A stretch of 63,745 bases of DNA from Spirochaetales bacterium (lineage in GTDB: Bacteria; Spirochaetota; Spirochaetia; UBA9216): NCBI GenBank assembly GCA_003245835.1, contig QKCC01000046.1:1-63745 (forward strand), given 5' to 3'. Below are positions 45,491 through 63,745 of the stretch, piece by piece. The notes beneath the pieces are model-generated. The model was not told the origin of the DNA, searched no databases, and saw only the letters and a program-made list of their open reading frames with translations. How positions within the stretch are numbered: position 1 is the stretch's first letter; each line of letters begins with the position of its first letter. The position numbers and the translations under genes are program-made.

Positions 45491-45505
45491 AAAAAGGAGT
45501 TACGT

Positions 45506-46753: not shown

Positions 46754-46775
46754 CCGCTTCACTGCTTTAATACAG

Positions 46776-46808: not shown

Positions 46809-46850
46809 AAAATACAGACAAAGAGTTGCGGACAGATACCAATAATTAAC

Positions 46851-46879
46851 TTGCAAGAATGCCGGAGAGATAATACTAT
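46851..46879 (+). promoter_or_regulatory. Sigma70-type promoter
   Basis: TTGCAA-17nt-TACTAT. Confidence 0.55.
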
Positions 46880-46917
46880 TAATATAGTAACAGATCGAAA
46901 AGAAACCGGAGTATGCT

Positions 46918-47814
46918 ATGGTAATCAGAAGATTCATTTTTGCTTTTATCGTCTTCATGATAATTGCGGCTCCTGTATTCTCAAAGGAACGTGTCGCGGT
47001 TCTTGATTTTGAAGCGAAGGATGTTCCTGAATCAGACGCCATGTCGGTTTCCGACCTTTTCCGGTCTGATCTTGTTGTTGTTGGAGCCTATACAGTACTT
47101 GAGCGCGGTAATATGCAGTCTATTCTTTCGGAACATCAATTACAAATGAAAGGAATCACAGATGAAGCGTCAGCATCCGAAATCGGGAAACTGCTGTCCG
47201 TTAATTATCTGTTTCTTGGAAACCTCAGCAAATTCGGCAGTAATTTTATTCTGGTTATAGATAAAATAAATGTCGAAACCGGCGAGATTGAAAATTCTGT
47301 AAAAAAATCGGCGGTTAAAATTGATGATCTTCTTGTACTTTCCTCGGAGGCCGCTGCCGAGATGTCTGAAGGCGCAGGATTCACTGAAAACGGCTCCGAC
47401 AGGCTTTACAATGCCGAAACACTGACTCAGCTTATAGCCGAAATTAATATTTATCATCTTCTTGAACTGTCTGTTCTTGAAGTTAATACCGCTGAAATGC
47501 AGGCGACGGATATTGATCTCAGGCGGCAGATTTACAACAGCCGCAAGCTCGACAATTCAGTTTTATGTATGATTGTAAATGCGTTTACATTCGGAATAGG
47601 CGGTAATTTCATGCAGGGGTTTAATGAATACGGCTATATCAGCATCGGGACCACAGCAGCATTTGCCGCGTCCCTGCTGTTCTCAGACAATACAACGCTG
47701 AAGATTGTTACGGGAAGCCTTTGGGCAGTAACGTACGGCGGCAGCATTTTATCCCCTTTTATTTATGAGGTAGATTATAATCAGTATCTTAAAGACAGCC
47801 TTCTTGTCTATTAA
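46918..47814 (+). CDS. Exported protein with a CsgG/TolB-N-like domain and a C-terminal P13/TM2-like hydrophobic domain
   Basis: Signal peptide; VAVLDFEAK..VLER.NM..IL.E..IGKLL..GNLSK..INVETGEI; C-terminal FGIGGNFMQG and hydrophobic helices. Confidence 0.7.
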   Translation: MVIRRFIFAFIVFMIIAAPVFSKERVAVLDFEAKDVPESDAMSVSDLFRSDLVVVGAYTVLERGNMQSILSEHQLQMKGITDEASASEIGKLLSVNYLFLGNLSKFGSNFILVIDKINVETGEIENSVKKSAVKIDDLLVLSSEAAAEMSEGAGFTENGSDRLYNAETLTQLIAEINIYHLLELSVLEVNTAEMQATDIDLRRQIYNSRKLDNSVLCMIVNAFTFGIGGNFMQGFNEYGYISIGTTAAFAASLLFSDNTTLKIVTGSLWAVTYGGSILSPFIYEVDYNQYLKDSLLVY

Positions 47815-47849
47815 TTGATAGAGAAACTTAAAATTTTGGAGCATTATGA

Positions 47850-49610
47850 ATGATTGATCCCACAAAACTCAAGGACTGGGAGATTGCAGAACTCTCAGAA
47901 AAAAACATGAAAACAGTCACCGTTCTTGCTGCGGAACTCGGACTTACAGAGATGGAAGTTCTGCCGTACGGTCACTACATCGGCAAGCTTGATTACAAGT
48001 CGATTCTTGACAGGCTGCAGGATAAACCTGACGGAAAGTATATCGAAGTAACAGCAATAAATCCTACCCCGCTTGGGGAAGGTAAAACCACAACTACAAT
48101 GGGACTGGTTCAGGGGCTCGGCAAGATCGGTAAAAAGGTTACCGGAGCCATCAGGCAGCCTTCCGGCGGCCCGACATTCAACATTAAGGGTTCGGCAGCC
48201 GGAGGCGGACTTGCTCAGTGCATACCGCTTACCGAGTTCAGCCTCGGCCTTACCGGCGATAATGATGCTATTACAAATGCACATAACCTTGCGATGGTTG
48301 CGCTTACCAGCCGGATTCAGCATGAATTCAATTATGATGATGAAACTCTTGCAAAAAGGGGCCTCAAACGTCTTGATATCGATCCGCGCAATCCTGCTGT
48401 AGGTTGGGCGATAGATTTTTCGGCACAGGCGCTAAGAGAGATTCTTATCGGCCTCGGCGGCAAGATGGACGGTTTTATGATGAAAAGCGGTTTTCAGATC
48501 ACTGTTTCGTCTGAAATCATGGCCATCCTTGCAGTTGCCAAAGACCTGAAAGATATGCGTGAGCGCATCGGCAGGATGATTGTAGCCTACAACAAGAAGG
48601 GTGAACCGGTTACAACAGCTGATTTAGAGGTTGACGGAGCGATGACTGCTATCATGGCGAAGGCTATTAACCCGAACCTTATGCAGACAATCGAAGGTCA
48701 GCCTGTACTCGTACATGCAGGCCCGTTTGCGAACATTGCAATAGGACAGTCATCCATCATTGCAGACAGGCTCGGACTTAAGCTTGCCGATTACCATGTC
48801 ACAGAGAGCGGTTTCGGAGCCGATATCGGGTTTGAAAAGTTCTGGAACCTTAAATGCAGGTTTTCGGGGCTTACACCGAACTGTTCTGTAATTGTTTGTA
48901 CTGTACGGGCCCTTAAAATGCACGGAGGGGGGCCCAGGGTTGTACCCGGCAAGCCGCTCGACAAAGCATACACTGAAGAAAATACCGCTCTTGTTGAAAA
49001 GGGGCTCGACAACCTTCTTAAACATATCGATACAGTCAGAAAAAGCGGCATCCCGGCGGTTGTATGTATAAATCATTTTTACACAGATACAGACAACGAA
49101 ATCGAGACTATTAAAAAGGCATGCAGAGACGCAGGCGCCAGGGTTGCAGTTTCCCGTCATTGGGAAAAAGGCGGAGAAGGTGCGGTAGAACTGGCAGAAG
49201 CCGTTGTCGAAGCATGTAATGAAAAACCTGACTTTAAATTCCTTTACTCGGATGATATGCCGCTCGAAAAAAGGATAGCGTTAATCGCAAAAGAGGTTTA
49301 CGGTGCCGACGGCGTCAGTTACACACCGGATGCCAGGAAAAAGCTTGATACCATCTCAGCTGACGCTTCATTCGCAGGAATGGGCACATGCATGGTAAAA
49401 ACGCATCTTAGCCTCTCTCACGATCCGACTCTTAAGGGAAGACCTACAGGATGGACACTGCCGATTAGAGACATCCTTGTGTACCAGGGGGCGGGATTTG
49501 TAGTCCCGGTAGCCGGTGATATTAAACTGATGCCTGGAACAGCGTCGGACCCTGCTTACAGGCGTGTGGATGTCGACACTGAAACCGGAAAGGTGAAAGG
49601 GCTTTTTTAA
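47850..49610 (+). CDS. fhs: Formate--tetrahydrofolate ligase
   Basis: [51 protein letters not shown]. Confidence 0.95.
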
Positions 49611-49623
49611 TTATTCCAGATTT

Positions 49624-49657
49624 GCCTGACTTCCATAAAGGGAGTCGGGCTTTTTTT
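49624..49657 (+). terminator. Intrinsic terminator after fhs
   Basis: GCCTGACTTCC-ATAAA-GGGAGTCGGGC-TTTTTTT (two G-U pairs). Confidence 0.8.
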
Positions 49658-49748
49658 CAACAATCAGCCTGGAATAATTTTTTCACTCAATGCCGATTAA
49701 ACATAACTTAAATAGACTTTTTATCGATTGTGTCGCATAATGCTATGC

Positions 49749-51983
49749 ATGAGAAAGCTGCTAATATTTGTCCTGTTTTTATCAATTTCAGTTTCCGGTC
49801 TTTTTTCAGAAAATATTCTTGGCTCACCATCCGAACTGCTGCTGCTCGAAGGATTCAAGATATACAGCTCTGACTATTCTCCCGGAAGTCTTATTGATGA
49901 GGCGTATTCAGGCTGGGAAACCTGGAACGGTGCAGATTTCACTGATTCCGAGGCTAAACCCGGCAGGATGATAACCCTTAAAACCGATTTTACCCTTGAT
50001 AAATCAGTCAGGGGAACACCTCTCGGTATTTACATCGGGCCGTCCCCATACCCCTGCAGAATATTTATTAATGGCTATAACGTATATAAATCCGGCCAGT
50101 ACGGAAAAACCTGGATCGCCGGGGCCTTCGTATCGGCTGTATTCCTGCTCCCAGAGAAGGCGCTGAATTTCGGAACCGAATCAAACATTCTTACTATAGA
50201 GATTGTTCCGAATGGTTTCAGCGAACCGTTCCCCGACATGAAGCTTACAAACCAGAGAGAGGCAGCCCGCCTGGCATTCTGGAGGAACTTTTTCAGTGTT
50301 TACCTTATAAGAGCAACCAGCTTCATGGGTGTTTTTCTTGCTGCTTATTATCTTCTGCTCTTTTTCTCTTCCGGACGTCGGGACAAAAGATTTTTATATT
50401 TTTCTATTCTTTGTATTTCTTTCTTTATCTCATACCTCGAAATCAGTTTTGCTACCGATGCCATTAATGACCTCATGATAAAAAAACTCAGTAAAATTGG
50501 TTTTACGCTTTTATTAATTTTCCTGACGACATTCGTTATTGAATTTACGCAATTAAAGAAAATACGGATTCCCGGCCGCGCGGCTGTAACTGTTCCCGGT
50601 GCAGTTTTTATTGTTCTGCTTCTCCTGGACTCTTCACATGCAGAAATAGATTCCACCTTAGGGATTATGCTCACCTACTTTTTTCCTGTAATCATACTTC
50701 TGAACCTTGTGATAATAGTTTACGCTGCACTTAAATACCGGACTCCCGACAACTTCGTGCTTCTGCTGGCATTAATCGGAGCTATAGTCTGCGCGCTCGT
50801 CGATATATTCCATATTCTTTTTTCTTCAATTCCTTACACATACATAACTCCGTACGGGTTTCTTCTTATAATATTTGCACTTTTCATTATCCTTACATTT
50901 GAGCAGCTCAGGGTTTCCGCCCAGAACAACAAACAGGCAATTGTCCTTGCTGAAAAAAACCGTATACAGAAGGAAATGATTGACGGGATATCCAGTTTGT
51001 CGGAATTCCTCGAAGAATCCGGACACAACCTGAATCTGAAAATAGCCGAATCTTCACGAATCATAGAGGAGAATTCCTCGGCTAACGCCAATATGAATAT
51101 TAAAATACGTGAACAGATCGACTCAATCGAAAAGACGCTTCCTGTAATTAAAAAAAATCTCGGTGAATCCGCTGAACGAATTTTTTCAGCACTCACAAAC
51201 CAGAATGCTTATGCAGACGAGATCAGTGAAACTCTATCGGGGATCATAAATAAAATGCATTCTTCACAGTCGGTTCTTGAAGAGACCGGAGCCGCCGCAG
51301 ATACGCTTAATAATATTGCCAAAAATAACCGTACCGTAATTGAAGAGTCATCCAAAGCACTCAAAGAGATCCATACACATTCAAAAACAATCCATGATGT
51401 TCTTGCCGGCATCGGCGACATTTCATCCAGAACTGATCTGCTTGCTATGAACGCATCAATTGAAGCGGCGCACGCCGGTGAAGCAGGTAAAGGCTTTGCT
51501 GTCGTAGCCGGTGAAGTGCGTAAACTTTCAGAACAGTCCCGAAAACAGATTGCCGAGAGCAATACCAAGCTCGAAGGGATGGAAACTGCTATAAACCGAA
51601 ATACTGAATTATCGAACAAGGTCTATGACGGACTTCACTCCATCATAGAAGAAGCTGTCCGCAGCTCTGAAATGATGAAGAAAACAAGAAGCGAGGTCGA
51701 ACTTCAGTTAACCGATACCGGCGAGCTGCTCGCATCAGTTCACAGTCTTATCGATGATACAGTTACAATCAAGGGACTCTCTGAAGAAAACAGACTTGTT
51801 AACAGTGAAGTTCAGCAGTTTCTGGAAAACTACCGTACTACCTTGCTTGGATTTTCCGATCTTATATCAAACCAGGAAAAGCAGATCTTAAATCTAAACG
51901 ATAATATAAGCCGAATTGAAGACCTTTTCCGCGAAAATCTTAAATCGATCGACAATCTTAAACGGCTGCTGGTACAGCAATAA
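49749..51983 (+). CDS. Methyl-accepting chemotaxis protein with a 7TM-DISM-like sensory region
   Basis: Signal peptide, beta-sandwich-like extracellular domain, about 7 TM helices, and [32 protein letters not shown]. Promoter TAGACT-17-CATAAT lies 7 nt before the ATG. Confidence 0.85.
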
Positions 51984-51999
51984 AGCAGAATTAATATAC

Positions 52000-52060
52000 A
52001 GATCTGCGGCTGCGATTATCAGGATTGTGAAATCCTTTTAAACCATACGGCCGCAGATCT
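52000..52060. terminator. Long stem-loop between convergent genes
   Basis: AGATCTGCGGC...GCCGCAGATCT 11-bp stem enclosing an AGGATT/AATCCT inner hairpin. Confidence 0.5.
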
Positions 52061-52069
52061 ATCAGAAAA

Positions 52070-52978
52070 TCATTTTATTCCAAGACTGGATTTAAACGAC
52101 TTCATTGTATTTTTCATAAGCATAGTAATGGTCATAGGTCCGACCCCGCCGGGAACAGGGGTAATCCACCCTGCCCGTTCGCATGCCGGTTCGAAATCGA
52201 CATCACCGGAAAGAACAGCTATGGTTTTTCCGGTTTTACTGCTTACTTTTTCACCGATACGGTTTACACCTACATCAATAACACATGCACCAGGTTTGAT
52301 CCATTCCGGCTTCACAAGCCCGGGAACACCTGCCGCGACAATGAGTATATCAGCGCGCAGGCAGTGGGAAGCAAGGTCTTTTGTTCCGGTATGAACAATT
52401 GTAACCGTCGCGTTGGCACCGGCGCCTTTCTGCAGCAGCATATTCGCTATCGGTTTGCCTACGATGTTCGAACGGCCGACAACTACAACCTCGGCTCCGG
52501 AGGTTTCTACACCGGAGCGGATAATCATCTCCTGGATAGCGGCCGGAGTGCAGGGAGGGAATTTTACTTCATCACCTCCGAGCATCAGCCTGCCTATGTT
52601 CACGGGATGAAACCCGTCTACATCTTTGTCCGGATCGATAGCATTGATTACCTTGGCCTCATCGATATGCTTCGGAAGCGGCAGCTGGACAAGAATTCCG
52701 TTTATGCTGTCATCTTTATTGTAGCGGTCAATCAGGTCAAGCAGTTCAGCTTCCGATATGTCCGGGTCCCTGTTATCCTGGATCTCTTTGTAGCCCAGGC
52801 TTTGGGCTGTTTTTATCTTCAGCGTCACATAGGACACCGATGCCGGATTTTCACCGATTAGAATTGTAACAAGCCCGGGGACTCTGCCGTATTTAGCTTT
52901 AAGTTCTTCAGTTTCGGCCCTGAGTTCCGCGAGTATTTCCTCGCGGATTTCAGTACCTTTTATAAGTCTTGCAGTCAT
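52070..52978 (-). CDS. folD: Methylene-THF dehydrogenase / methenyl-THF cyclohydrolase
   Basis: GILVQLPLP, KDVDGFHP, PCTP, GRSNIVGKP, DVGVNR, TPVPGGVGPMT; ATG abuts the panB stop. Confidence 0.95.
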   Translation of the reverse strand: MTARLIKGTEIREEILAELRAETEELKAKYGRVPGLVTILIGENPASVSYVTLKIKTAQSLGYKEIQDNRDPDISEAELLDLIDRYNKDDSINGILVQLPLPKHIDEAKVINAIDPDKDVDGFHPVNIGRLMLGGDEVKFPPCTPAAIQEMIIRSGVETSGAEVVVVGRSNIVGKPIANMLLQKGAGANATVTIVHTGTKDLASHCLRADILIVAAGVPGLVKPEWIKPGACVIDVGVNRIGEKVSSKTGKTIAVLSGDVDFEPACERAGWITPVPGGVGPMTITMLMKNTMKSFKSSLGIK

Positions 52979-53845
52979 CTAAACACCAAGCGCTTTTTTA
53001 AGTTCCTCAACCTGATCCTGTTTCATATTGAAGCAGTGTTCTTCACCGGGGAATTTAACCTCTTTTACTTCATTTATGAAGGATGAAACAGCATCAAGCT
53101 GTGCCGTGTACATATCCGCGTAAACCTTTACAAACTTCGGAGTAAATCTTTTAAACAGGCCGACCATGTCATGAAGAACAAGAACCTGACCTGCACAGCT
53201 CGGACCTGCTCCGATACCTACAGTCGGGATAGTAAGTTTTTCAGTGATAATGGCTGCAAGCTGCTGGGGTATCGCTTCAAGAATAATAGCGAAAGCTCCG
53301 GCATCCTGCATTGCAAGCGCGTCATCGAGAACAGCCTTCGCAGCGTCTATTGACTTTCCCTGCACTTTGAAACCGCCGAGCATTGCAGCAGTCTGCGGGG
53401 TAAGACCGATATGAGCGAAAAACGGTATTCCGGCCCTTGTAATTGCGGCTGCAACCTTTGCGTAATCCTGTCCGCCTTCAGCTTTAACTGAGTCGGCACC
53501 GCCGTCTTTATAAATTATTCCGGCATTGGCAACGGCCTGCTCGGTTGAAATATTATATGACATGAACGGGAGGTCGCCTACAACATGCGCACGCTTTACA
53601 GCACGCATTACGGATTTGGTATGCATTACCATTTCATCCATTGTAACAGGAACGGTATCGTCATACCCCAACTCAACCATTCCGAGGGAATCACCGACAA
53701 GAATAATATCGATACCTGCCTGGTCTACAATCAAACCCTGCGGGTATGAATATGCCGTAATCATGGAAATTTTTTCGCCGTCATCCTTCATTTTCTGAAG
53801 ATCGGCAGATAACAATTTTTTAGTTGCTTCTGGATGTGAACTCAT
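52979..53845 (-). CDS. panB: 3-methyl-2-oxobutanoate hydroxymethyltransferase
   Basis: ILVGDSLG, DLPFMSY, VKAEGG, HIGLTPQ, GGFKVQGK, GIGAG..GQVLVLHD. Confidence 0.93.
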   Translation of the reverse strand: MSSHPEATKKLLSADLQKMKDDGEKISMITAYSYPQGLIVDQAGIDIILVGDSLGMVELGYDDTVPVTMDEMVMHTKSVMRAVKRAHVVGDLPFMSYNISTEQAVANAGIIYKDGGADSVKAEGGQDYAKVAAAITRAGIPFFAHIGLTPQTAAMLGGFKVQGKSIDAAKAVLDDALAMQDAGAFAIILEAIPQQLAAIITEKLTIPTVGIGAGPSCAGQVLVLHDMVGLFKRFTPKFVKVYADMYTAQLDAVSSFINEVKEVKFPGEEHCFNMKQDQVEELKKALGV

Positions 53846-53929
53846 ATATATCTCCTTATTAGTGCATTTGAATGCTAATAATATAACCTAAATTTAAATT
53901 TCTTGACAGCATTGTTTTGAAAAGTTTTA

Positions 53930-53958
53930 TTTAAATGTTTGCGCAAATATGGTAATAT
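53930..53958 (+). promoter_or_regulatory. Promoter region with LacI-type operator
   Basis: Palindrome TGTTTGCGCAAATA (53936-53949) lies just upstream of an extended -10 TGGTAATAT. A TTGACA also lies at 53903-53908. Confidence 0.6.
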
Positions 53959-53980
53959 TCTTTAACTTCGGAGGTCTTGA

Positions 53981-55180
53981 ATGAATGTACTTGTAATCAA
54001 CAGCGGAAGTTCTTCTATAAAATTTCAGTTAATAGATATGGATAAACGCTGTACTCTGGGCAAGGGCCTGATTGAACGTATCGGCATTGACGGGATTCTA
54101 AACTTTCAGCCTGAAGGCGGAGAACGCTGCGTCAGGAAGCTTGATATACCCGACCACAAAACCGGGCTTGATTATGCCCTTGAAAGTATTACAGATAAAT
54201 CATCAGGTATTATCAATAATCTTTCTGAGATCCATGCCGCAGCGCACCGTATCGTGCAGGGCGGAGCTGCAATGACCGGGCCTGTTATTATCACACCCGA
54301 ACTTCTTAAAGAGTTTGAAAAATACACCCCCCTCGCCCCTCTTCACAATCCAGCCTGCCTGCTGGGTGTCAGTGCAGCACAAGTCCTTCTTCCGGGCATC
54401 CCTCATGTTGCTTCATTTGACACAGCCTACTACAGCGGTATGACTGAAGAGGCTTACACCTTTGCGCTTGATTATGACTGTTATGAGAAACTAGGGTACC
54501 GCAAGTTCGGTTATCACGGGGCATCTCACCGTTACGTTAATTTGCGGGCCGCAGAATTTCTTGGTGCAGATAAAACAGACTTCAGAACAATCAGCTGCCA
54601 TATCGGCGGCGGCGTGACTGTTGCGGCATCGATCGACGGCGAAGGCGTCGACACATCACTTGGGTACGGAACCGTCTGCGGGGCACCGATGGGCACAAGG
54701 TCCGGAGACGTTGACCCCGAAGTTATTCTTCAGTTGATTTCACGCGACGGCTACACCGCCGAAGAAGTCAAGGAAATGATTTATAAAAAATCCGGATTAT
54801 TAGGTATAAGCGGTATATCAAGCGACATTCGTGATATACTGCAGGCAATTGAAGACGGTAATGCACGAGCAGAACTGGCTTTAAATATTTTCACCAGGTC
54901 TATCCGAAGATTTATCGGTGCACTCAGCACCAGCCTTGACGGGCGTATGGATGCCCTGATATTTACTGCGGGAATCGGTGAAAATTCTGATACTGTGCGT
55001 TCGATGATATGTAAAGGACTCGAGATATCAGGAATAAAAATAGATGAAGAACTAAACAGCGGCTGCAGAAATGAAGCGGTAATATCATCTTCTGATTCAG
55101 CTGTCAAGATTCTCGTTATTCCGACAAATGAAGAAATGATGATGGCTATTGAAGCCGTTGAAACACTTAACAACAACTGA
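53981..55180 (+). CDS. Acetate kinase family carboxylate kinase (divergent)
   Basis: INSGSSSIK, APLHNP, FDTA, MGTRSGD, TAGIGEN and PTNEE are conserved; several pocket residues are atypical. Confidence 0.88.
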   Translation: MNVLVINSGSSSIKFQLIDMDKRCTLGKGLIERIGIDGILNFQPEGGERCVRKLDIPDHKTGLDYALESITDKSSGIINNLSEIHAAAHRIVQGGAAMTGPVIITPELLKEFEKYTPLAPLHNPACLLGVSAAQVLLPGIPHVASFDTAYYSGMTEEAYTFALDYDCYEKLGYRKFGYHGASHRYVNLRAAEFLGADKTDFRTISCHIGGGVTVAASIDGEGVDTSLGYGTVCGAPMGTRSGDVDPEVILQLISRDGYTAEEVKEMIYKKSGLLGISGISSDIRDILQAIEDGNARAELALNIFTRSIRRFIGALSTSLDGRMDALIFTAGIGENSDTVRSMICKGLEISGIKIDEELNSGCRNEAVISSSDSAVKILVIPTNEEMMMAIEAVETLNNN

Positions 55181-55190
55181 GGTGATGAAA

Positions 55191-56162
55191 ATGCTTAACT
55201 CGATTTGTGATGTACCGGGTATTCTTGTCGGTCACGCGCAAAACACTGAAGGCGGTACAGGCTGTACGGTAATTATAGCGGAGAATACCGCAGTCTGCGG
55301 CGTTGATGTAGCGGGCGGAGGACCAGGAACAAGGGAAACTGACGCTCTTAACCCGGTCAATCTTGTCCACGCGGTAAATGCGGTTTACCTCGGAGGCGGA
55401 AGCGCCTACGGCCTTGCGGGAGCTGACGGTGTCATGAAATGGTGCGAGGAGAACGGAAAAGGATTTAATGTCGGTGTCGGCATTGTTCCGATTGTTCCGG
55501 GCGCAGTCCTTTTTGATCTTCCTATCGCTGATTACAAGGCCCGCCCGGATTCAGCCATGGGATATGAGGCCTGCTGCAGCGCCAACAATGCCGAAAACAG
55601 GATGGGAAATATTGGTGCGGGCACCGGTGCGACGATCGGCAAAGCACGCGGTTTCGGAGGCATGATGAAAGGCGGGCTTGGAACTGCAAGCCTTAAAATA
55701 GGTGAAATAGTAATCGGTGCAATTGTTGCAGTAAATTGCTTTGGAGATATTATCGATCCATCAACCGGCAGGATAGTCGCAGGGGTACTGCCGGAGGAAG
55801 GTACGGATTTTCTCGGTTCGACCTATTATATAAAAAAGGTTCTTGAAAAAGGTATTAACCCGCTTGGCGGCAATACTACAATCGGTGTTATTGCCACCAA
55901 TGCCAAATTGAACAAATCTGAGGCGACCAAGGTTTCAATGATGGCGCACGACGGGTATGCAAGGGCAATCAACCCGATTCACACTCTGCACGACGGTGAT
56001 ACTATATTCACACTGTCTACAGGAGATCTTCAGGCGGATGTGTCTTCCATAGGAGCACTTGCAGCTGAAGTAATGAGCAGCGCAATACTCGCCGGCGTAA
56101 AAGCAGCAGTAAGTGCTTATGGAGTTCAGGGATACGCAGACATGAACAGGAGTGATAAATGA
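55191..56162 (+). CDS. DmpA/P1 (S58) family self-processing amidohydrolase
   Basis: SICDVPGILVGH, TGCTVI, GGGPGTRETD, GGSAYGL, GAGTGA, MKGGLG, NTTIGVIATNA, HTLHDGD; GAGGTG SD. Confidence 0.88.
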   Translation: MLNSICDVPGILVGHAQNTEGGTGCTVIIAENTAVCGVDVAGGGPGTRETDALNPVNLVHAVNAVYLGGGSAYGLAGADGVMKWCEENGKGFNVGVGIVPIVPGAVLFDLPIADYKARPDSAMGYEACCSANNAENRMGNIGAGTGATIGKARGFGGMMKGGLGTASLKIGEIVIGAIVAVNCFGDIIDPSTGRIVAGVLPEEGTDFLGSTYYIKKVLEKGINPLGGNTTIGVIATNAKLNKSEATKVSMMAHDGYARAINPIHTLHDGDTIFTLSTGDLQADVSSIGALAAEVMSSAILAGVKAAVSAYGVQGYADMNRSDK

Positions 56163-57076
56163 AAATTTCAATTATCGGTGCAGGCGCAATGGGGTCGCTT
56201 TTCGGCGGCAAACTTGCTGCTTCAGGAAATGAAGTGGTACTTTACGATATCAACAAGGCACATGTTGATGCGGTGAACAGCAACGGACTCAAAATCGAAA
56301 CACTCGCCACGGGTGATATTCAGACAGTAAAAGTTAAGGCTTCTTCAGACGCGGCAGATGTCGGCGGTTCGGATATTATGATTGTTTTCGTAAAGTCGAC
56401 AGCTACAGAAATTGTGGCCAAAAACTTCAAACAGGTTGCCGGTGACAATACCATCGTAGTTACCCTTCAGAACGGCTACGGCAACGAAGAGATACTGAAA
56501 AATCATTTCGGCGCGGCTTTCACTGCTGCCGGGGTGACTTCGCAGGGGGCGACCTTTGCAGGTCCCGGGCATATCAAACACGCCGGCAACGGACCCACCC
56601 ACATCTGTATGTCCGACAAAAACAACGATAAACTTGCGCCCTTTATAAAAGCGCTTAATGAAGCAGGTTTTGAAGCTGACGCTGAAAACAACATTGAAAG
56701 CCTCGTATGGAGCAAACTTGTAATCAATGTCGGAATTAATGCTCTTACAGCACTTACCGGCCTTAAAAACGGACAGCTGCTTGATTTTAATGAAACTAAG
56801 GCACTGATGAAGGACCTTGTTGATGAAGCGGTTAATGTCTGTAATAAGTCCGGTATTAAACTTACATATGATAATCCGCTTGAAGCTGTTTATTCGGTAG
56901 CAGAGAAAACCGGTCCGAACCGTTCATCAATGCTTCAGGATTTTGACCGCGGAAGCGTCACTGAAATCGATTTTATCAACAACGCCATTGTCAGGGCTGC
57001 TGAAAAGATTGGGGTTGATACCCCGGTCAACAGAACGGTTGCTCGCATCATTAAGACGATAGATTTAACGAGATAA
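56159..57076 (+). CDS. panE: 2-dehydropantoate 2-reductase
   Basis: GAGAMG, FVKS, TLQNGYGN, WSKLVIN..IN, SSMLQD, TEIDFIN; ATAA/ATG overlap with the previous gene. Confidence 0.9.
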   Translation: MKISIIGAGAMGSLFGGKLAASGNEVVLYDINKAHVDAVNSNGLKIETLATGDIQTVKVKASSDAADVGGSDIMIVFVKSTATEIVAKNFKQVAGDNTIVVTLQNGYGNEEILKNHFGAAFTAAGVTSQGATFAGPGHIKHAGNGPTHICMSDKNNDKLAPFIKALNEAGFEADAENNIESLVWSKLVINVGINALTALTGLKNGQLLDFNETKALMKDLVDEAVNVCNKSGIKLTYDNPLEAVYSVAEKTGPNRSSMLQDFDRGSVTEIDFINNAIVRAAEKIGVDTPVNRTVARIIKTIDLTR

Positions 57077-57109
57077 TTTTCCTGCTTATATAAAAATATA
57101 AAATTAAAT

Positions 57110-57145
57110 AAAAAACGCCGACAGGGTTTCCCGTCGGCGTTTTTT
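57110..57145. terminator. Bidirectional intrinsic terminator
   Basis: AAAAAACGCCGAC-10nt-GTCGGCGTTTTTT. Confidence 0.85.
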
Positions 57146-57181
57146 ATAAGCCGGACTATGATAGTGTCCGGCTTTTGTTCC

Positions 57182-58393
57182 CTATTCCGGAACGATCTTG
57201 GCAACAAGAACCTTCTTTCCGCCTTCAATTTCAAAGAGGAAAAGAGGTTTGTCGGCAGGATATCCGCCCTTGTTGGTCCAGCTGTACTGGAGACCTTCAA
57301 AGTTCTTTATGTCGTTACAGTAGTCTCTGATCTTGGTTCTTTCTTCAGCAAGCTTCTTCGGGTCACCGGTAACTCCGGTTTCTTCGATAGCTCTTTTGAT
57401 CATGTAAACTGCATCATAGTAGTTCGGTGAAAGTGAGAAAGGCTCCATACCGTCATGATCATCCTTGAATCCCTGGCGGAAAGCATTCCAGCGCGGAGTG
57501 TCAAGAGCAGGATCATTGTAGTTGTAGATCATAATACCGTTGATCTTGTCGCCGCCTGTTGTGTAAAGAGCAGCATCATCAGCGCTGGAGAAAACAAGAA
57601 TCTTGTTCATGTCCGCCCATCCGCGGTTTTTGAGCTCAATAACAATTTTGGCTACTTTCTCGGCATTACATGCAAAGATGATTCCGTCAGGATTCTGTGC
57701 AAGGGCTTTAACAATAAGCGGACCGAAAGCAACTGCGTCCTGGGGTACTTCAACATCATCAAGTACTGTTACACCGGCTTTTTCAAGTCCGATTACATGT
57801 GCAGCAGCCATTCCGGGCCATGCGCCGTAATTTTCAACAAACTGTACAACCTTCTTGGTACCGGTTTTTTTCGCCCATGCAGTTACAATCGGCGGAAGCT
57901 TTTCGTCTGTCGGGGAGAACCATGAAATTGCCCACGGAAAATATTTTGCGGCATATTCATATGATGTTGTAGCAGTGAAACTGTAAACACCCTCGTCTGC
58001 TGCGATAGGTACTGCGGCCATGATTACAGGCTCCGGAACCGGACCCATAACAACAAGTGCATCCTCAACAAGCTTGGACATCTCGACAGTACCCTTTTCA
58101 GGACTCATTCCGGTGTCAACGCCGATAACCTTTACGGGTTTTCCTGCAATACCGCCGGCAGCATTGATCTGCTCTGCAGCGAATTCTGCACCCCATTCAA
58201 GGTATTCACCGATACTTGCAATCGGGCCGGTAAGACAGTTAAGGAACGGGATTTCCCATTCGTCTACCATTACTTTTGCGCTTTCTTCGGCTTTTTCCAT
58301 CGCAGGTTTATCAGATGCTTCCTGAGTTCCGCCCGCAAAAATGAATGAAGCTGATACAAGCAGCAACAGCAGGATGGATAGAATTTTTTTCAT
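57182..58393 (-). CDS. LIV/HAAT-family ABC transporter substrate-binding protein
   Basis: Signal peptide ending IFAGGTQE; LTGPIASIG, INAAGGIAG, YDAVY. Confidence 0.88.
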   Translation of the reverse strand: MKKILSILLLLLVSASFIFAGGTQEASDKPAMEKAEESAKVMVDEWEIPFLNCLTGPIASIGEYLEWGAEFAAEQINAAGGIAGKPVKVIGVDTGMSPEKGTVEMSKLVEDALVVMGPVPEPVIMAAVPIAADEGVYSFTATTSYEYAAKYFPWAISWFSPTDEKLPPIVTAWAKKTGTKKVVQFVENYGAWPGMAAAHVIGLEKAGVTVLDDVEVPQDAVAFGPLIVKALAQNPDGIIFACNAEKVAKIVIELKNRGWADMNKILVFSSADDAALYTTGGDKINGIMIYNYNDPALDTPRWNAFRQGFKDDHDGMEPFSLSPNYYDAVYMIKRAIEETGVTGDPKKLAEERTKIRDYCNDIKNFEGLQYSWTNKGGYPADKPLFLFEIEGGKKVLVAKIVPE

Positions 58394-58447
58394 GTTTTCC
58401 TCCAAATAATTTTCAGTACTTAAAGTACCGTTTTAGATCGTAATATT

Positions 58448-59329
58448 TTATACCTTTTTTTTATTTAGTGACAGCAAACTTTCTAGTTTTTTAACCATCG
58501 GTCTGGTAATTATGCCCTCCGGTTTAATAACAAGAACAATAATCAGAAGAACACCATAGATAACAATGTTCCATGATTCCACGGCGTCCGGCAGGATCAG
58601 CGGAAACCCCCATAAAATCGGTGCGGCAAGCAGTGCTCCCCATAAGGTGGAATATCCGCCCACAAAAAGCATAGTCATACATACACCTACAATATGAAAA
58701 GTGAAGTGATTAGGAGAAATGCTGCGCATAATAAACGCATACATAACACCGGCCATTCCGCCGATACCGCTCGCCCAGGTCTGCAGAAACATTCCCATTT
58801 TCTTAACATCGACGCCGAACGAAACAGCAAGGTCCTTATCAATAAAAATCGCTGAAGAAGCGCGTCCGAGGCGGGAATGATCAAATCTCGAAATAAGAAA
58901 ACCCGTAATAAGAACAAGCGCGTATACTACTATCAGCAGCAGCGTTCTGTTTGATGCTGAAGAACTGAGAACCTTGGGAATGCTGAAAATTCCAAGCGGT
59001 CCGCCGAAAGCATCGACATTCTCTATTATTGTTTTTGTGAGGTAAATAAATGTAAAACCTACAATAACAACTGCAAAACAAGGAGCGTCCCCTATCGCAA
59101 AGGAAACAAGAAATCCTATCAGCGCGCCGAGCAGGGTCCCCGCAATAAGCACAAGCCAGAACGGCCATGCAAAAGTAATTGCCATAAGCGCCGCAAAATA
59201 CGCTGAAATCGCCATATTAGCAATTGTCATAAAATGGAGCTGTCCGATTCGGTACGGAATGTAGATAGACCAGCTCATGAGAATATAGATCGCTGTTATA
59301 GCAAGAAAATAAAATAAAGTTAAAGACAC
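58448..59329 (-). CDS. LivM-like ABC permease
   Basis: Multi-TM; SRLGRA, GVDV, MLFVGG..LWGALL, KPEGI; GTG start with GGGAGG SD. Confidence 0.88.
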   Translation of the reverse strand: MSLTLFYFLAITAIYILMSWSIYIPYRIGQLHFMTIANMAISAYFAALMAITFAWPFWLVLIAGTLLGALIGFLVSFAIGDAPCFAVVIVGFTFIYLTKTIIENVDAFGGPLGIFSIPKVLSSSASNRTLLLIVVYALVLITGFLISRFDHSRLGRASSAIFIDKDLAVSFGVDVKKMGMFLQTWASGIGGMAGVMYAFIMRSISPNHFTFHIVGVCMTMLFVGGYSTLWGALLAAPILWGFPLILPDAVESWNIVIYGVLLIIVLVIKPEGIITRPMVKKLESLLSLNKKKV

Positions 59330-59343
59330 ACTTTCCTCCCGGC

Positions 59344-60231
59344 CTATAGCTTTGAACCGAAAACCCCTTTGGGTTTCGCCAGAATTACTACCAGCATTAC
59401 AATGAAGGCAATAGCATTCGACCACGATCCGGCCATATAGCCCTGAATTATCGCCTCAAGGATACCAAGCAGAAGACCGATTATAAGACCGCCTGTCAGG
59501 TTTCCGAGACCCGCAATAATCGATACGGCAAGCACCTTATGTCCAAGCTGGTCACCAAGGCCCGCAGATGCTGAGCCCAGAAGTATGGCCATCAGTACTG
59601 CAGTCACTCCGCCGATAAACCCTGTCAGAGCGTAACTCTGAAAGCCGGTTCGCAGAAGCGGAATACCAACGAGCTTTGCTCCGTTCGGATCTTCTGCAAT
59701 AGCGCGGAATGCACGGCCTGACCTGGTTTTGTAAAGCAGCCAGAAAAGTCCGAGAACGAATATTACGCCTATTACAAGAGTGAGCACCTGCCCTCTCGAA
59801 ATACTTACTAGTCCGATACTCACAATCGCGCCCTTGTCATTCCCTGTAAGAGCGTCGGGAAAGGCAATGGGAAAACCCTGGTTGAATGTATGGGACAGAA
59901 TATCAGTGATGATCATTCCCATTCCCATCGAAATTACCATGGTCGCATTTATGTCGACCGATCCCCGTTTTTTCATAATATGCTGGAACATCGGTGCGGT
60001 AATCGCATTGACAGCTATAGCCGACAGGATTCCTGCCGCGATGCCCAAAGCCACGCTTCCGGTAAGCTTCATAACAAACCATGAAATATACATTGAAAAT
60101 ACAACTACAACCGGAAAAGAAAAATGAATAATCATTGCGACAAGAAGAAGAAGATTGAATCCAGTCACAAGAAGAACATAAATACTTCCGATTGATAATC
60201 CGTTAAAAATCTGAGCAATTAATACTTCCAT
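59344..60231 (-). CDS. LivH-like ABC permease
   Basis: NGLSIGSIY, KTRSGRAFRAIAED, IIAGLGN, KPKGVFG. Confidence 0.9.
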   Translation of the reverse strand: MEVLIAQIFNGLSIGSIYVLLVTGFNLLLLVAMIIHFSFPVVVVFSMYISWFVMKLTGSVALGIAAGILSAIAVNAITAPMFQHIMKKRGSVDINATMVISMGMGMIITDILSHTFNQGFPIAFPDALTGNDKGAIVSIGLVSISRGQVLTLVIGVIFVLGLFWLLYKTRSGRAFRAIAEDPNGAKLVGIPLLRTGFQSYALTGFIGGVTAVLMAILLGSASAGLGDQLGHKVLAVSIIAGLGNLTGGLIIGLLLGILEAIIQGYMAGSWSNAIAFIVMLVVILAKPKGVFGSKL

Positions 60232-60234
60232 CAG

Positions 60235-60948
60235 CTATGCTCCCAGGTATGCTTCGCGGACAGATTCATCGTTCAGAAGTTCATCTGAAGTTCCGCTTTT
60301 AATAATTTTGCCGGTCTCAAGGACATACCCCCGGTGGGCAATTTTGAGAGCCTTATATACATTCTGCTCTGAAAGCAGAATCGAATATCCTTCTTTATTA
60401 AGGTTAACCAATATTTCAAAAATATCGTTAACAATAATTGGCGCAAGACCAATTGACGGTTCATCGACCATAATCATATCCGGTGCAGACATAAGCGCCC
60501 TTGCGATTGCAAGCATCTGCCGCTCGCCGCCGCTCAGTGTTCCGGCAATCTGCGTCCTTCGTTCTCCGAGGACAGGGAAAGAGTCGAATACAAGCTCCAG
60601 CTTGCTCGCTGAATCTTTAAGATTGTGATGAGCACCGAGAAGCAGGTTGTCCATTACCGTCATCGACGAAAATACTCCTCGCCCCTCAGGAACGAGGTAC
60701 ATGCCGTTGCGAACATTCCTGTCAACAGGATTTCCTGATGTCAGCTTGTCCTTGAACCGGATTTCACCTCCGGACGGAACATTAGCCCCGAGAACAGTTT
60801 CCATTATGGTTGTCTTTCCGGCTCCGTTGGCTCCGACCAGAACAACTATTTCACCCTGCCCGACATCAAGACTAACACCCTTCAAAGCATTTACGTGACC
60901 GTAATTTACTTTCAGATCTTTAATACTCAGTATATTATTCCGTTCCAA
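60235..60948 (-). CDS. LivF-like ABC ATPase
   Basis: GANGAGKTT, VPEGRGVF, LSGGERQML, DEPS; TTG start at 60948 with GGAGG SD. Confidence 0.9.
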   Translation of the reverse strand: MERNNILSIKDLKVNYGHVNALKGVSLDVGQGEIVVLVGANGAGKTTIMETVLGANVPSGGEIRFKDKLTSGNPVDRNVRNGMYLVPEGRGVFSSMTVMDNLLLGAHHNLKDSASKLELVFDSFPVLGERRTQIAGTLSGGERQMLAIARALMSAPDMIMVDEPSIGLAPIIVNDIFEILVNLNKEGYSILLSEQNVYKALKIAHRGYVLETGKIIKSGTSDELLNDESVREAYLGA

Positions 60949-61690
60949 GGTATGCCTCCAGTACTCTCGGATCCTTCTGAACTTCTGCAGGCGTACCTTC
61001 AAAAATATTATCGCCGAAATTCAGCACCGTTACCATCTCGGCTACATTCATAAGCATTTTCATATCATGACTTACCACGACCGGAGAAATACCCATACTT
61101 TTAATCTTCTTGATCAGCTCACCTACCTGATCCGTCTCAATAGGTCCCATTCCTGACGCAGGCTCATCAAGCAGAAGCATCTTGGGTTTAGAAACGACCG
61201 CCCTTGCAATCTGAACGAACTGCCGCTCAGCCCATACAAGATCGTACGCCCACCTGTCGGCTGATTTCTCGAGGTCAAGAAGCTCGAGGATCTCCATAGC
61301 TTTATCCTTAAGAACGGACTCTTTTTTTGATTCTTTCAGCGGAACTCTGAAAAATGTATCCGCTATATCATTACGTCCATAATCAAAAATTCCGCTCATA
61401 ACGTTCTCTACAACAGTAAGTGAAGGCACAAGCTTCCCTTGCTGAAAAGTCCTGCGGATTCCGAGATTTGATATCTCATGAGCTTTTTTCCCGGTTATTT
61501 CAACGTCATCCAGGTAAATATTACCCGAAGTTACCTCGAGCAGTCCTGTAATACAGTTGAACATAGTTGTCTTGCCGGAACCGTTTGGTCCTATTATTCC
61601 ATGAACCCGGCCGTCGGCTATGTCGAAGCTGACATTCTTCAGCGCTTTTAGTCCGCCGAAATGTTTACTGACACCTTTTATTGAAAGCAT
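60935..61690 (-). CDS. LivG-like ABC ATPase
   Basis: FGGLKAL, GPNGSGKTT, RTFQ, LLLDEPASG, HDM, VLEAYLG. Confidence 0.9.
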   Translation of the reverse strand: MLSIKGVSKHFGGLKALKNVSFDIADGRVHGIIGPNGSGKTTMFNCITGLLEVTSGNIYLDDVEITGKKAHEISNLGIRRTFQQGKLVPSLTVVENVMSGIFDYGRNDIADTFFRVPLKESKKESVLKDKAMEILELLDLEKSADRWAYDLVWAERQFVQIARAVVSKPKMLLLDEPASGMGPIETDQVGELIKKIKSMGISPVVVSHDMKMLMNVAEMVTVLNFGDNIFEGTPAEVQKDPRVLEAYLGTE

Positions 61691-61715
61691 TCTATATCCT
61701 TTGGATTATCTGTTT

Positions 61716-61804
61716 TCCTTCATTTAATAATTGGATATGATTGTAAAATGAAGGATAACTAAAGTCAATAAAAAGTACAAATTATAATATGATTGTATTA
61801 CAAT
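61716..61804. promoter_or_regulatory. Divergent control region of the ABC operon and ptb
   Basis: Minus-strand TTGACT-17nt-TACAAT (61768-61740); inverted repeat TCCTTCATTT/AAATGAAGGA; palindrome ATTGTA-T-TACAAT (61792-61804). Confidence 0.55.
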
Positions 61805-61848
61805 ACTATCAGTAATTGTGATTCGGAGAATTTTACAGGAGTTTTTAT

Positions 61849-62745
61849 ATGATTAGCGATTTCAAGGAACTTGAAAAACTGGCGGTTACGAATGTATCCA
61901 AAAAGGTAGTACTGGCTATGGCAGAAGAAGCTGACGCACTTGATGCTGTTGCAAAGGCATCAGCGGCAGGTATTATAAACCCGGTGCTTGTTGGGAATAT
62001 TGATGCAATAAAAAGGACTGCAGATGAAATCGGTGTCGACATCACTGATTTCGAACTTGTACCGGCTGAAGGTGAATATGAATGTGCCGCAAAGGCGGTT
62101 GCCCTTATCAGGGACGGCAGCGGAGACTGCCTGATGAAAGGAAAGACAGCTACATCCACCATTATGAAAGCCGTTCTTGATAAAGAGACAGGCCTAAGAG
62201 GTTCCGGAGTTCTATCGCACATTGCAGTCATTAATCCTCCCACCTATCACAAACTTTTAATTACAACCGACTCGGCGCTTAACATCGCGCCCGAACTCAA
62301 AGACAAGATTGCAATAATCGAGAATGCTCTTACGGTTGCCAGAAAATTAGGTATTGAAACTCCTAAGGTTGCAGTAGTCGGGGCTGTCGAAAAAGTAAAC
62401 ACGGCAATGCCTGCGACCCTCGATGCGGCAATCCTGTCAAAAATGTCGGACAGGCACCAGATTAAAAACTGCATAATTGACGGTCCATTCGCTCTTGACA
62501 ATGCAATTTCTCAAAAAAGTTGTGAAATTAAGGGGATCGAATCCGAAGTCGGAGGCGATGCCGACATCATCCTGTTCCCGGATATCGAAGCGGCAAATGT
62601 ATTCTATAAATCGCTTGCCTACCTGACCGACTACCCGATGGCAGGCCTGATAGCCGGCGCTTCCGTACCTATAATCCTGACTTCACGCAGCGATACGGAT
62701 ATGATTAAGTACTACTCAATACTGGCGGCGGTATCGCTGGTTTAG
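61849..62745 (+). CDS. ptb: Phosphate butyryltransferase (branched-chain phosphotransacylase family)
   Basis: LMKGK..T, LSH, TDSALNIAP, IDGPFALDNA, PDIEAAN..YK, ILTSRSD. Confidence 0.88.
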   Translation: MISDFKELEKLAVTNVSKKVVLAMAEEADALDAVAKASAAGIINPVLVGNIDAIKRTADEIGVDITDFELVPAEGEYECAAKAVALIRDGSGDCLMKGKTATSTIMKAVLDKETGLRGSGVLSHIAVINPPTYHKLLITTDSALNIAPELKDKIAIIENALTVARKLGIETPKVAVVGAVEKVNTAMPATLDAAILSKMSDRHQIKNCIIDGPFALDNAISQKSCEIKGIESEVGGDADIILFPDIEAANVFYKSLAYLTDYPMAGLIAGASVPIILTSRSDTDMIKYYSILAAVSLV

Positions 62746-62788
62746 GAGCCGCTGAATCGTTGAATGCAGGTTCAGATAGGCGGTCTAT

Positions 62789-62814
62789 AAAAAAGCCTGC
62801 TTCCGCAGGCTTTT
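62789..62814. terminator. Bidirectional intrinsic terminator
   Basis: AAAAAAGCCTGC-TTCC-GCAGGCTTTT. Confidence 0.85.
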
Positions 62815-62823
62815 CTGATTTTA

Positions 62824-63744
62824 TTAATCCTTGTAGTAAGTTACCGTAAGATTTGGCGCAGTTCCGCCATAAAAATCCAATAAGTAATCAAACGTAGCTG
62901 CAGAATCATTGAATGGATACAACCTTAAACCATAATTTCCATAAGCACCGCTAGCCCATAAGCTGACAATTTGTGTAACATCCTGAACGAACTCTGTCTG
63001 GGTAGATGACGGCGGGTATGTCACAATACTGTAGTTCGAATTAATAGCTCCGGCGGCACTGACATTGTCCCATGTTTCACCGCTCCACGCATAAATCATC
63101 ATTTGTATTTCCATATGACCCATTGTAGCGTCAACTGTATCTGTAGTCGTCAATGTTAATGATGCAGATGTTACTTTAAAATCAGATGAACTGATATCAT
63201 TCAGATTAAATGTTATAAAACCTATAGCCTGAAGAATGCTGGCCATATCTTCAGATACTACGATAGGATCTGACTGAGTACCGGAAGGATTGAAAATACT
63301 TCCTGATTCAGATGCGGACAGGGTGACTGTATCAGTTACAATCAAGGAAGTACTTACCGGTCCCACAAAGTAATAATTCTCCGAGTTATAAAGCGCCCCG
63401 TCTGTTGCTTCATAGTACAGCTGCTCATCTGAACTTAGATCCGTCCACTTCGGGCCGTATGAAAAAATCGAATAATAGACACGGTAGCCTCTCGGGTAAC
63501 CATCTGCGTCGACACTGCCGTCATCAGAAGAAACGCTGCCCTGTGCCAGGGTTACGACGTCACCGTCCCATACCGAAACCGGAGCTGAACCGGCCTTCCT
63601 GACCAGAACATAGCCCTCCAGACTGCCGTCACCGCCGTCACCGTCAGCCCATGCAAGCTGCACAATCCGGTTCGACGGATTATCCTCATTCAGCGTTGCA
63701 GTAAAATCAACTGCAGCGGGTATCGGGTTTTCCGTATCGTTTGG
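62824..63744 (-). CDS. Extracellular/surface protein with an FN3-like segment and a DNRLRE-like C-terminal domain, 5' partial
   Basis: Frame is open to the window end (PNDTENPIP...). Ser/Thr/Asp-rich; ITFNL..VTSASLTL..TW..DVTQIV..W..NYGLRL..PNLTVTY pattern. Confidence 0.65.
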   Translation of the reverse strand, partial: PNDTENPIPAAVDFTATLNEDNPSNRIVQLAWADGDGGDGSLEGYVLVRKAGSAPVSVWDGDVVTLAQGSVSSDDGSVDADGYPRGYRVYYSIFSYGPKWTDLSSDEQLYYEATDGALYNSENYYFVGPVSTSLIVTDTVTLSASESGSIFNPSGTQSDPIVVSEDMASILQAIGFITFNLNDISSSDFKVTSASLTLTTTDTVDATMGHMEIQMMIYAWSGETWDNVSAAGAINSNYSIVTYPPSSTQTEFVQDVTQIVSLWASGAYGNYGLRLYPFNDSAATFDYLLDFYGGTAPNLTVTYYKD

Positions 63745-63745
63745 A

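Follow-up and report, generated by a model that had tools for sequence, protein, structure and literature searches.

The window analysed here is contig QKCC01000046.1 of a Spirochaetales bacterium (63,745 nt; contig C259 of assembly GCA_003245835.1). At 47850-62745 it carries a cluster in which panB, panE and the gene for a peptidase S58 protein lie together with folD, fhs, a gene for an AckA-family kinase, an ATP-binding cassette (ABC) importer of the LIV type and a phosphotransacylase gene (ptb). The linkage between panB and S58 is far beyond chance, as it recurs in genomes of the same genus, of the same family and of other families, and once in another phylum. We propose that the cluster ferments the pantoyl moiety of coenzyme A (CoA) fragments with a yield of ATP, and give this reading a probability of roughly 0.55. 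From the gene identities, their linkage, the absence of partner genes and homology to ThnT, we infer a substrate, a direction for every reaction and the ATP yield. The gene families are known; their arrangement and the proposed direction are new. The assembly comprises 4.43 Mb in 318 contigs and is 96.66% complete with 7.08% contamination; judged by the cluster genes, the assemblies nearest to it are labelled Spirochaetota. Genes were called from open reading frames (ORFs) and from Pfam, NCBIfam and TIGRFAM family scans with curated cut-offs. Loci, genomes and contigs are numbered with L, G and C, respectively.

Conservation of the panB, S58 and panE neighbourhood

A search with the S58 protein retrieved 26 loci. 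Eleven were labelled as spirochaetes, with panB beside S58 in eight and panE in nine; neither gene stood beside S58 in any of the 15 non-spirochaete loci. The five further genomes of the family that carry S58 mostly repeat livGFHMK, panE-S58-ackA and a divergent panB-folD, with ptb kept in three and fhs in four. The core in other families consists of panB, then S58-panE, then a gene for an ArgE/DapE-type M20 deacylase, which lies next to panE in 16 distinct spirochaete loci. panE follows S58 in most related loci. Identity to the window copies is 71-90% for PanB in this clade and falls to about 50% for S58. folD follows panB in L003, L035, L043, L049-L054, L058, L061 and L151, and fhs is close to panB in, for example, L052, L053, L054, L058, L061 and L151. 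A LIV importer stands beside the cluster in L006, L007, L011, L019, L022, L027, L049-L053 and L058; other loci have a Dpp/Opp-type importer instead, and L151 has an OPT transporter. Subunits of a 2-oxoacid:ferredoxin oxidoreductase directly adjoin panB in six loci (L047, L054, L056, L058, L059 and L068), and ackA is present in nine. Phosphotransacylases come from two Pfam families: Ptb in five loci, adjoining the LIV genes in L049, L050, L051 and L058, and the PduL type (PF06130, a sequence family unrelated to Ptb) in three, where it follows S58 (L008, L019 and L058). Conservation of the neighbourhood had been proposed as a check in an earlier note made from the letters of the window; panB, S58, panE and an importer are strongly kept, and folD, fhs, ptb and ackA recur.

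Loci differ in the M20 gene, in ackA and fhs and in the importer type, and in other phyla most S58 relatives stand without pan neighbours. Both facts would suit two unrelated units kept side by side by descent, an S58/importer unit for peptides and a pantoate/one-carbon (C1) unit left from a lost biosynthetic route. This is very unlikely, as panB, S58 and panE occur together across at least nine families with highly conserved PanB, and the same set was assembled independently in Bacillota. A relic would decay, yet all frames are open.

In the window, fhs (47850-49610, + strand; NF010032 1107 bits, cut-off 938) is followed by a chemotaxis receptor gene (49728-51983, +) and by folD (52070-52978, −; NF010765 550 bits, cut-off 501) and panB (52979-53845, −; TIGR00222 308.3 bits, cut-off 207.55; PF02548 355 bits). 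The last two abut directly on the − strand, the boundary being at 52978/52979 with no gap. Divergent from panB-folD are the kinase gene (53981-55180, +; TIGR00016 401 bits, cut-off 293; under all equivalog cut-offs), S58 (55149-56162, +; PF03576 151.8 bits) and panE (56159-57076, +; TIGR00745 271.6 bits, cut-off 141.35), which overlap by 32 and then by 4 bases and therefore form one operon. Beyond panE, at 57108-57147, comes a strong hairpin of the two-way terminator kind. The five importer genes (livK/M/H/F/G-type; 57182-61690, −) encode a binding protein (57182-58405; PF13458 158 bits), two permeases (58448-59425 and 59344-60231) and two ATPases (60235-61002 and 60935-61690), the last four being assigned by NCBIfam. 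The Ptb-type (PTA_PTB) phosphotransacylase gene is at 61849-62745 (+; PF01515 158 bits). The earlier note had described panB as coupled straight to folD with fhs nearby and, divergently, an AckA-like kinase, an amidohydrolase and panE, then a LIV importer and ptb. ORFs and family scans bore out the coupling and found each of the other genes where it had been placed.

PanB of the window scored above the equivalog cut-off of TIGR00222 and was 59-61% identical to PanB of operons with pantoate kinase (PoK), PPS and CoaBC. In the PanB tree it falls in a clade of 30 rows (SH-aLRT 93) from genomes without panC or PPS, most of them adjoining S58. PanE scored above the TIGR00745 cut-off, with both PF02558 and PF08546 present, and remained under every equivalog cut-off. 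The fhs and folD of the cluster are extra copies: paralogues of fhs (45-46% identity) are located on C18 and C66, and a second folD adjoins the second fhs on C18. Three more ackA paralogues and a second ptb lie elsewhere in the genome. Dedicated extra copies of fhs-folD, ackA and ptb would suit bulk flux better than vitamin-level flux.

Several S58-cluster genomes also have one or two more panB paralogues of full length (41-54% identity; L075-L085), which form two clades of their own. Three conserved settings were seen for them: an aminotransferase with an AsnC regulator; an octopine-dehydrogenase-like gene; and an OMP-decarboxylase/HUMPS-family gene with a BMC-domain protein, a SorC-type regulator and an FGGY kinase.

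The S58 domain is full length, with PF03576 matching residues 17-328 of 337. Which start codon is used is uncertain, because relatives align from about residue 13. Among solved structures, nylon hydrolase 9cxr was the top match (233 bits), ThnT matched at E 2.4e-54 (188 bits) and NylC at about 95 bits, and the 17 matches at E ≤0.001 included neither a DmpA nor a BapA chain. The label 'DmpA-family' of the earlier note thus holds at the Pfam level; at the structure level ThnT and NylC-type enzymes match and DmpA/BapA do not. Judged by these sequence matches, the protein is closer to ThnT than to the DmpA/BapA aminopeptidases, and ThnT is its nearest characterised relative. N242-T243 aligned with the N-T of ThnT, the position of the Thr nucleophile being kept, and the processing site N242/T243 reads NTT in 18 of 21 aligned relatives and HST in the other three. 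ThnT cleaves itself at Asn281/Thr282. The S58 protein is predicted to be a self-processing, ThnT-like amidohydrolase. A tree of 104 S58 relatives places the pan-linked spirochaete copies in one clade (29 rows, 25 of them pan-linked, SH-aLRT 92). According to the available text of two sources, ThnT breaks the pantetheinyl group down to cysteamine once ThnR and ThnH have trimmed CoA to pantetheine (PMC6097109), and was described in a 2026 review as the only known microbial pantetheine hydrolase (PMC13602198).

One S58 protein, 70% identical to that of the window, came from a record titled uncultured Vibrio sp. (L090), where its gene lies beside a Dpp-type importer and without pan genes. In the S58 tree it nests within the clade formed by the window's family, with a support of 100, and the taxonomic label may not fit its contig.

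A profile scan gave 80 further S58 loci, most of them without these neighbours. In L151 (Anaerovoracaceae, Bacillota), one strand carries fhs, an FTCD_C cyclodeaminase-type gene, folD, a formate/nitrite transporter gene, iclR, panB, panE, the M20 deacylase gene, an OPT transporter gene and S58. Its S58 lies in a Bacillota clade outside the spirochaete clade of the S58 tree, and therefore the gene association arose at least twice. S58 adjoins coaBC in L111 and L144, and lies in or near pan biosynthetic genes in L114 (S58, DUF2520 reductase, panD, panB) and L160. The order in L175 is DUF2520 reductase, panB, panC, panD, nadA, nadB, nadC, one more gene and S58, and in L137 oxidoreductase genes are found within about 5 kb of S58. 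Together such loci indicate that the S58 subfamily is repeatedly tied to pantothenate/CoA genes. S58 is paired with an M20 gene in L105, L107, L164 and L168. The neighbours of S58 in the Firmicutes loci L014-L017 (electron-transfer flavoprotein, LeuA-like, macro-domain and phosphoribosyltransferase genes) gave no lead.

Part of the neighbourhood would also fit the same downstream chemistry fed by another imported amide: a pantoyl or pantothenoyl conjugate, 4'-phosphopantetheine, CoA-derived peptides of carrier proteins, or an unrelated peptide-like compound yielding a substrate of PanE or PanB. Three unrelated importer types (LIV, Dpp/Opp and OPT) accompany the cluster; genes for a HAD phosphatase, a metallo-beta-lactamase-fold (MBL) hydrolase and a metallophosphoesterase flank it in L054, L060, L065, L066 and L068; a type I phosphodiesterase gene adjoins S58 in L012, L018 and L020; and in L107 and L164, from aerobic Bacillaceae, S58 and M20 stand with a peptide importer and without pan genes. 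We regard such a substrate as quite unlikely, as PanB and PanE here are orthologues of true pantoate enzymes. The tie of the HAD, MBL and Dpp genes to the cluster is moreover loose, because in this genome the HAD/MBL/Dpp-Opp importer unit is on another contig (C115:583-6572, L074), adjoining CTP synthase. Their candidacy as core members, with that of the phosphoesterase gene, is weakened by the same fact. Flanking genes c23-c29 of L006, L007, L022 and L027 (MptE-like, Memo, MBL, M16) were judged unrelated.

Absence of partners for pantothenate and CoA synthesis

The earlier note had remarked that panC and panD are not in the window and had raised a search of the whole genome for both and for a second panB. 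The absence extends to the whole assembly, and just a distant second panB was found. The family search of the assembly gave no panC candidate, and tblastn with two PanC proteins reached a best E of 0.33. For panD six candidates were scored, and for archaeal PPS (PF02006) eleven, with no match in this genome. CoaB (PF04127) was not matched here in a search that matched 14 of 14 control genomes. Neither panC nor PPS was found in the six other genomes of the family, one of which is closed, and the absences of panC, PPS and CoaB hold in the closed same-genus genome G113. CoaX, CoaD and CoaE were all found. The search for a type I pantothenate kinase gave a 30-bit match only; that for type II (PF03630) gave no match in this genome, but also none in the 14 control genomes, and is uninformative.

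The distant PanB-like gene (C66:4717-5583, L073; about 136-137 bits) lies among LuxR-type regulators, a trigger-factor C-domain protein, a short-chain dehydrogenase and a chaperonin-like gene, with the third fhs 5 kb off. It could come from the 7% contamination, and was dropped as a partner of the cluster, its neighbours being unrelated.

For the phyletic pattern, panC, S58, panB, CoaB, PPS and CoaX were searched for in 151 sampled genomes of the class, and the rows were tabulated by hand; because of the relatedness of these genomes, the counts cannot be taken as independent. panB was found in 73 of the 151, of which 23 have panC, 26 have PPS and 24 have neither, with no overlap. An S58 match of at least 51% identity is present in 22 of the 24 genomes with neither gene, and panB lies within 3 kb of it in 17 of these 22. 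In the remaining five the two genes are on different contigs, S58 being near a contig end in four. The two exceptions without such a match (G029 and G141) have the same panB type, which adjoins oxidoreductase genes or ackA. Five genomes of the panC and PPS groups gave more distant S58-family matches (40-46% identity), none of them near panB; the cut between close and distant S58 was set after the data were seen. CoaB was found in one of the 24 (G008) versus 22 of 23 in the panC group and 26 of 26 in the PPS group. CoaX was found in nine of the 24, one of the nine being interrupted by stop codons, and 15 have none. The group has no PanC or PPS, nearly always no CoaB, and CoaX in 9 of 24; therefore its pantoate has no known route to CoA.

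In the same-genus genome G001, the CoaX match (C45:26934-27448) is split, with TAA and TGA stops, and this type III pantothenate kinase may be decaying. According to the accessible part of PMC12570885, type III pantothenate kinases were reported unable to use pantethine. The pattern exposes the question of where 4'-phosphopantetheine comes from in bacteria with just CoaX, CoaD and CoaE or fewer.

The 26 genomes with PPS have an archaeal-type route in one operon (L029-L046, for example L033:7077-11904), with a GHMP kinase (pantoate kinase-like, PoK), PPS, panB, a pyridoxal phosphate-dependent decarboxylase and coaBC. These genomes have no panC, and CoaX is also lacking in all families but one. 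A 2020 paper on the bacterial PoK/PPS route reports it for Candidatus Poribacteria; no word in its main text starts with 'Spirochaet' or 'Treponema'.

Could the cluster be biosynthetic? In that case isobutyrate would be activated by the kinase and phosphotransacylase and reductively carboxylated to 2-oxoisovalerate, Fhs and FolD would give methylene-tetrahydrofolate (methylene-THF) from formate, and PanB and PanE would make pantoate. The importer, S58 and M20 would free beta-alanine from beta-alanyl compounds, and the two halves would be joined by PanC or an unknown ligase. We consider this possible but unlikely. It draws on the folD-panB pair in the true biosynthetic operons L035 and L043, on the L151 genome, which has PanC and neither PanD nor another panB, on the S58 genes in or beside biosynthetic pan genes in L114 and L175, and on DmpA-type S58 enzymes having been used with beta-alanyl donors (PMC9570944, in the text available). 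However, in the spirochaete group none of 24 genomes has PanC or PPS, one has CoaB and 15 are without CoaX, and this reading would call for three or more unknown enzymes. The loci share no conserved ATP-grasp or adenylating enzyme. Dedicated copies of fhs, folD, the kinase and the importer are hard to justify for a trace vitamin, and the nearest characterised relative of S58 cuts a pantetheinyl amide, not a free beta-alanyl peptide.

The either/or pattern of panC and S58 also prompted the idea that S58 replaces PanC as ligase. It was not taken up as a main reading, since the loci keep neither an energy source nor a ligase, and CoaBC is lacking too. It is retained as a scheme for a new, ligase-free synthesis of the CoA core in these spirochaetes, which are without PanC, PPS and CoaBC and often without CoaX. 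In it, the variant kinase would make an acyl phosphate of pantoate or pantothenate and S58 would transfer the acyl group through a Thr intermediate to beta-alanine or cysteamine; we hold it to be highly improbable.

Proposed pathway and its variant kinase

Under the fermentative reading, the ABC importer (LIV here, Dpp-type or OPT elsewhere) would take up pantetheine or a close relative, and the ThnT-like S58 hydrolase would split it into pantothenate and cysteamine. A second amidase, the ArgE/DapE-type M20 protein in most relatives, would cleave pantothenate to pantoate and beta-alanine. PanE would oxidise pantoate to ketopantoate, and PanB, running in reverse, would convert ketopantoate and THF to 2-oxoisovalerate and methylene-THF. 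FolD and Fhs would release the C1 unit as formate, with ATP. A 2-oxoacid:ferredoxin oxidoreductase, whose gene is elsewhere in this genome and adjoins panB in relatives, would form isobutyryl-CoA; Ptb would convert this to isobutyryl phosphate, and the variant AckA-type kinase would yield isobutyrate and ATP. Taken together, the loci appear to hold every enzyme needed from pantetheine to 2-oxoisovalerate and methylene-THF. The catabolic direction is the most probable one because the genomes have no known route from pantoate to CoA. Dedicated FolD and Fhs would fit it as well, because each turn would load one THF that needs unloading.

The kinase can be aligned end to end with the Methanosarcina acetate kinase. 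In all eight complete cluster-linked kinases, GYGTVCGAPMGTR stands in place of the canonical GFTPLEGLxMGTR, and a truncated ninth copy starts alike. Residues 230-237 read YGTVCGAP versus FTPLEGLA (changed motif GYGTVCGAP). The three unlinked ackA paralogues all keep the canonical TPLEGL. The acetate pocket of the Methanosarcina enzyme comprises Val93, Leu122, Phe179 and Pro232 (PMC5517563, available text). The cluster kinase does not conserve this pocket as a whole: it retains Val and Leu but has Tyr in place of Phe and Thr in place of Pro232. Because the shared motif change hits Pro232 of the acetate pocket, the kinase is a pathway-specific variant, probably for another acid than acetate. The Ptb protein remained under both specific cut-offs tried (NF004472, 359.8 bits against 399; TIGR02706, 344.6 bits against 410.5) and was above that of PF01515.

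Several points weigh against this reading. All of the enzymes are reversible, and we only infer the direction of flux. Little pantetheine is available in nature, and the organisms themselves probably require it. Biosynthetic operons of the order folD-panB-coaBC-PPS-PoK (L035 and L043) contain the folD-panB pair too, and the PanB of such operons is sister to the clade of cluster PanB copies. The L151 genome has PanC and CoaB elsewhere and no PanD, and the panB of its operon is the only one; therefore the operon there must serve, or also serve, biosynthesis, and S58 and M20 could supply beta-alanine in that genome. The best solved S58 match is a nylon hydrolase without known natural role, and S58 relatives of about 50% identity are common in many phyla, with most of the 80 scanned loci lacking pan genes. 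The natural substrate of ThnT is a carbapenem-bound pantetheinyl group, according to the part of PMC6097109 available. The absences in this genome rest on an assembly 96.66% complete with 7% contamination. The M20 deacylase is lacking here (best match 27% identity) and in four of the five other genomes of the family, and hence this genome has no assigned gene for pantothenate cleavage.

Two M20 carbamoylase-type amidase genes upstream of fhs, amid1 (44222-45490, +; NF006771 439 bits) and amid2 (45506-46753, +; NF006769 454 bits), may belong to the cluster. The position next to fhs is kept by both in L049 and L051 and by a single one in L054, from another family. They are candidates for pantothenate cleavage, for beta-alanine metabolism or for association with the purine genes upstream. 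That amid1, amid2 or S58 itself cleaves pantothenate here is a guess. PanC beside an 'amid'-type M20 gene in G151 was given no weight, as a cell-wall amidase and a spore photoproduct lyase lie between them.

The fermentation of pantetheine or pantothenate put forward in the earlier note therefore stands in part. Each of the sequence-based checks that the note had suggested favoured this main reading. Partner absence, linkage, the likeness to ThnT, the oxidoreductase genes, and the formate channel and IclR regulator in Bacillota speak for it; the lack of M20 here, the PanC of the L151 genome and the reliance on an assumed direction do not.

The closest known counterpart is the ThnR/ThnH/ThnT system of thienamycin synthesis in Streptomyces cattleya. 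There a homologous S58 hydrolase takes the pantothenoyl part off a pantetheinyl group after a phosphatase and a pyrophosphatase have acted (PMC6097109, available text), and some cluster relatives have a HAD phosphatase and a phosphoesterase. Unlike ThnT, which belongs to a secondary-metabolite cluster and provides cysteamine for an antibiotic, the spirochaete cluster would act in primary metabolism and apparently uses the pantothenate side. Its PanB and PanE belong to the same families as those of the canonical PanB/PanE/PanD/PanC pathway, above equivalog or subfamily cut-offs, whereas this genome is without PanC, PanD and CoaB/CoaC, the cluster is linked to amidases, importers and ATP-forming enzymes, and the proposed flux is reversed.

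Aerobic pantothenate degradation in Pseudomonas likewise starts with cleavage of pantothenate to pantoate and beta-alanine by pantothenase (EC 3.5.1.22). Pantoate is then oxidised through aldopantoate and dimethylmalate, which differs from a retro-aldol route through PanE and PanB. The pantothenase protein was stated to be unknown in 2023, in the accessible text of PMC10393543. The vanins of animals are members of another superfamily, the nitrilase superfamily. Their pantetheinase route, as given in the available text of PMC13602198 and PMC12570885, leads from CoA through 4'-phosphopantetheine and pantetheine to pantothenate and cysteamine; unlike the route proposed here, it recycles the vitamin, with no degradation of pantoate.

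FolD and Fhs operate in purine and glycine fermenters, and a 2-oxoacid oxidoreductase, Ptb and butyrate kinase in fermenters of branched-chain amino acids. The same enzyme families would here yield formate and ATP, and a branched short-chain acid and ATP. The difference is that both branches would be fed by one retro-aldol split of ketopantoate, and that the kinase is an AckA-family variant, not of the Buk family.

Literature searches on pantothenate degradation, pantetheinase, S58 and pantoate, supplements aside, found no description of an anaerobic breakdown pathway for pantothenate or pantetheine or of a pantothenase gene, and the text of a 2025 review of CoA metabolism in gut bacteria has no word starting with 'catabol'. 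If true, the proposed pathway would represent the first anaerobic route by which vitamin B5/pantetheine is catabolised, with PanE and PanB running backwards for energy. It would also supply gene candidates for pantothenase EC 3.5.1.22 and for a bacterial pantetheinase of primary metabolism. Annotation would have to be corrected, as genomes with panB and panE are usually scored as partial B5 producers and 24 of the 73 panB genomes here have no known use of pantoate for CoA.

Neighbouring genes and signals in the window

Upstream of the cluster, a YgeW-type knotted carbamoyltransferase (37733-38932, 688 bits), a PduL-type phosphotransacylase-like ORF (38932-39501; 52% identical to the PduL-type protein beside S58 in L058) and an NADP glutamate dehydrogenase gene (39617-40996, −) may form a locus for fermentation of purines or nitrogen compounds. 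They are followed at 41076-44042 by a gene for a 988-residue protein with weak matches only (about 49 bits) to phosphoenolpyruvate-utilising enzymes and PigC-type ligases. Family scans also found a CsgG-like gene upstream of the cluster, together with amid1 and amid2.

Hairpins lie at the ends of units at 49624-49650 (after fhs, terminator-like), at 57108-57147 and at 62791-62814 (terminator-like). From the terminator scan only these three strong hairpins were used, as operon marks. Promoter-like sites (32 versus 27.7 ± 4.5 in shuffles) and terminator-like sites (18 versus 16.3 ± 4.5) were not in excess, and an Rfam scan of 44000-63745 gave no family at its gathering score. Downstream of ptb and the last hairpin, a gene for a DNRLRE-domain protein (62824-63744) runs past the end of the window.

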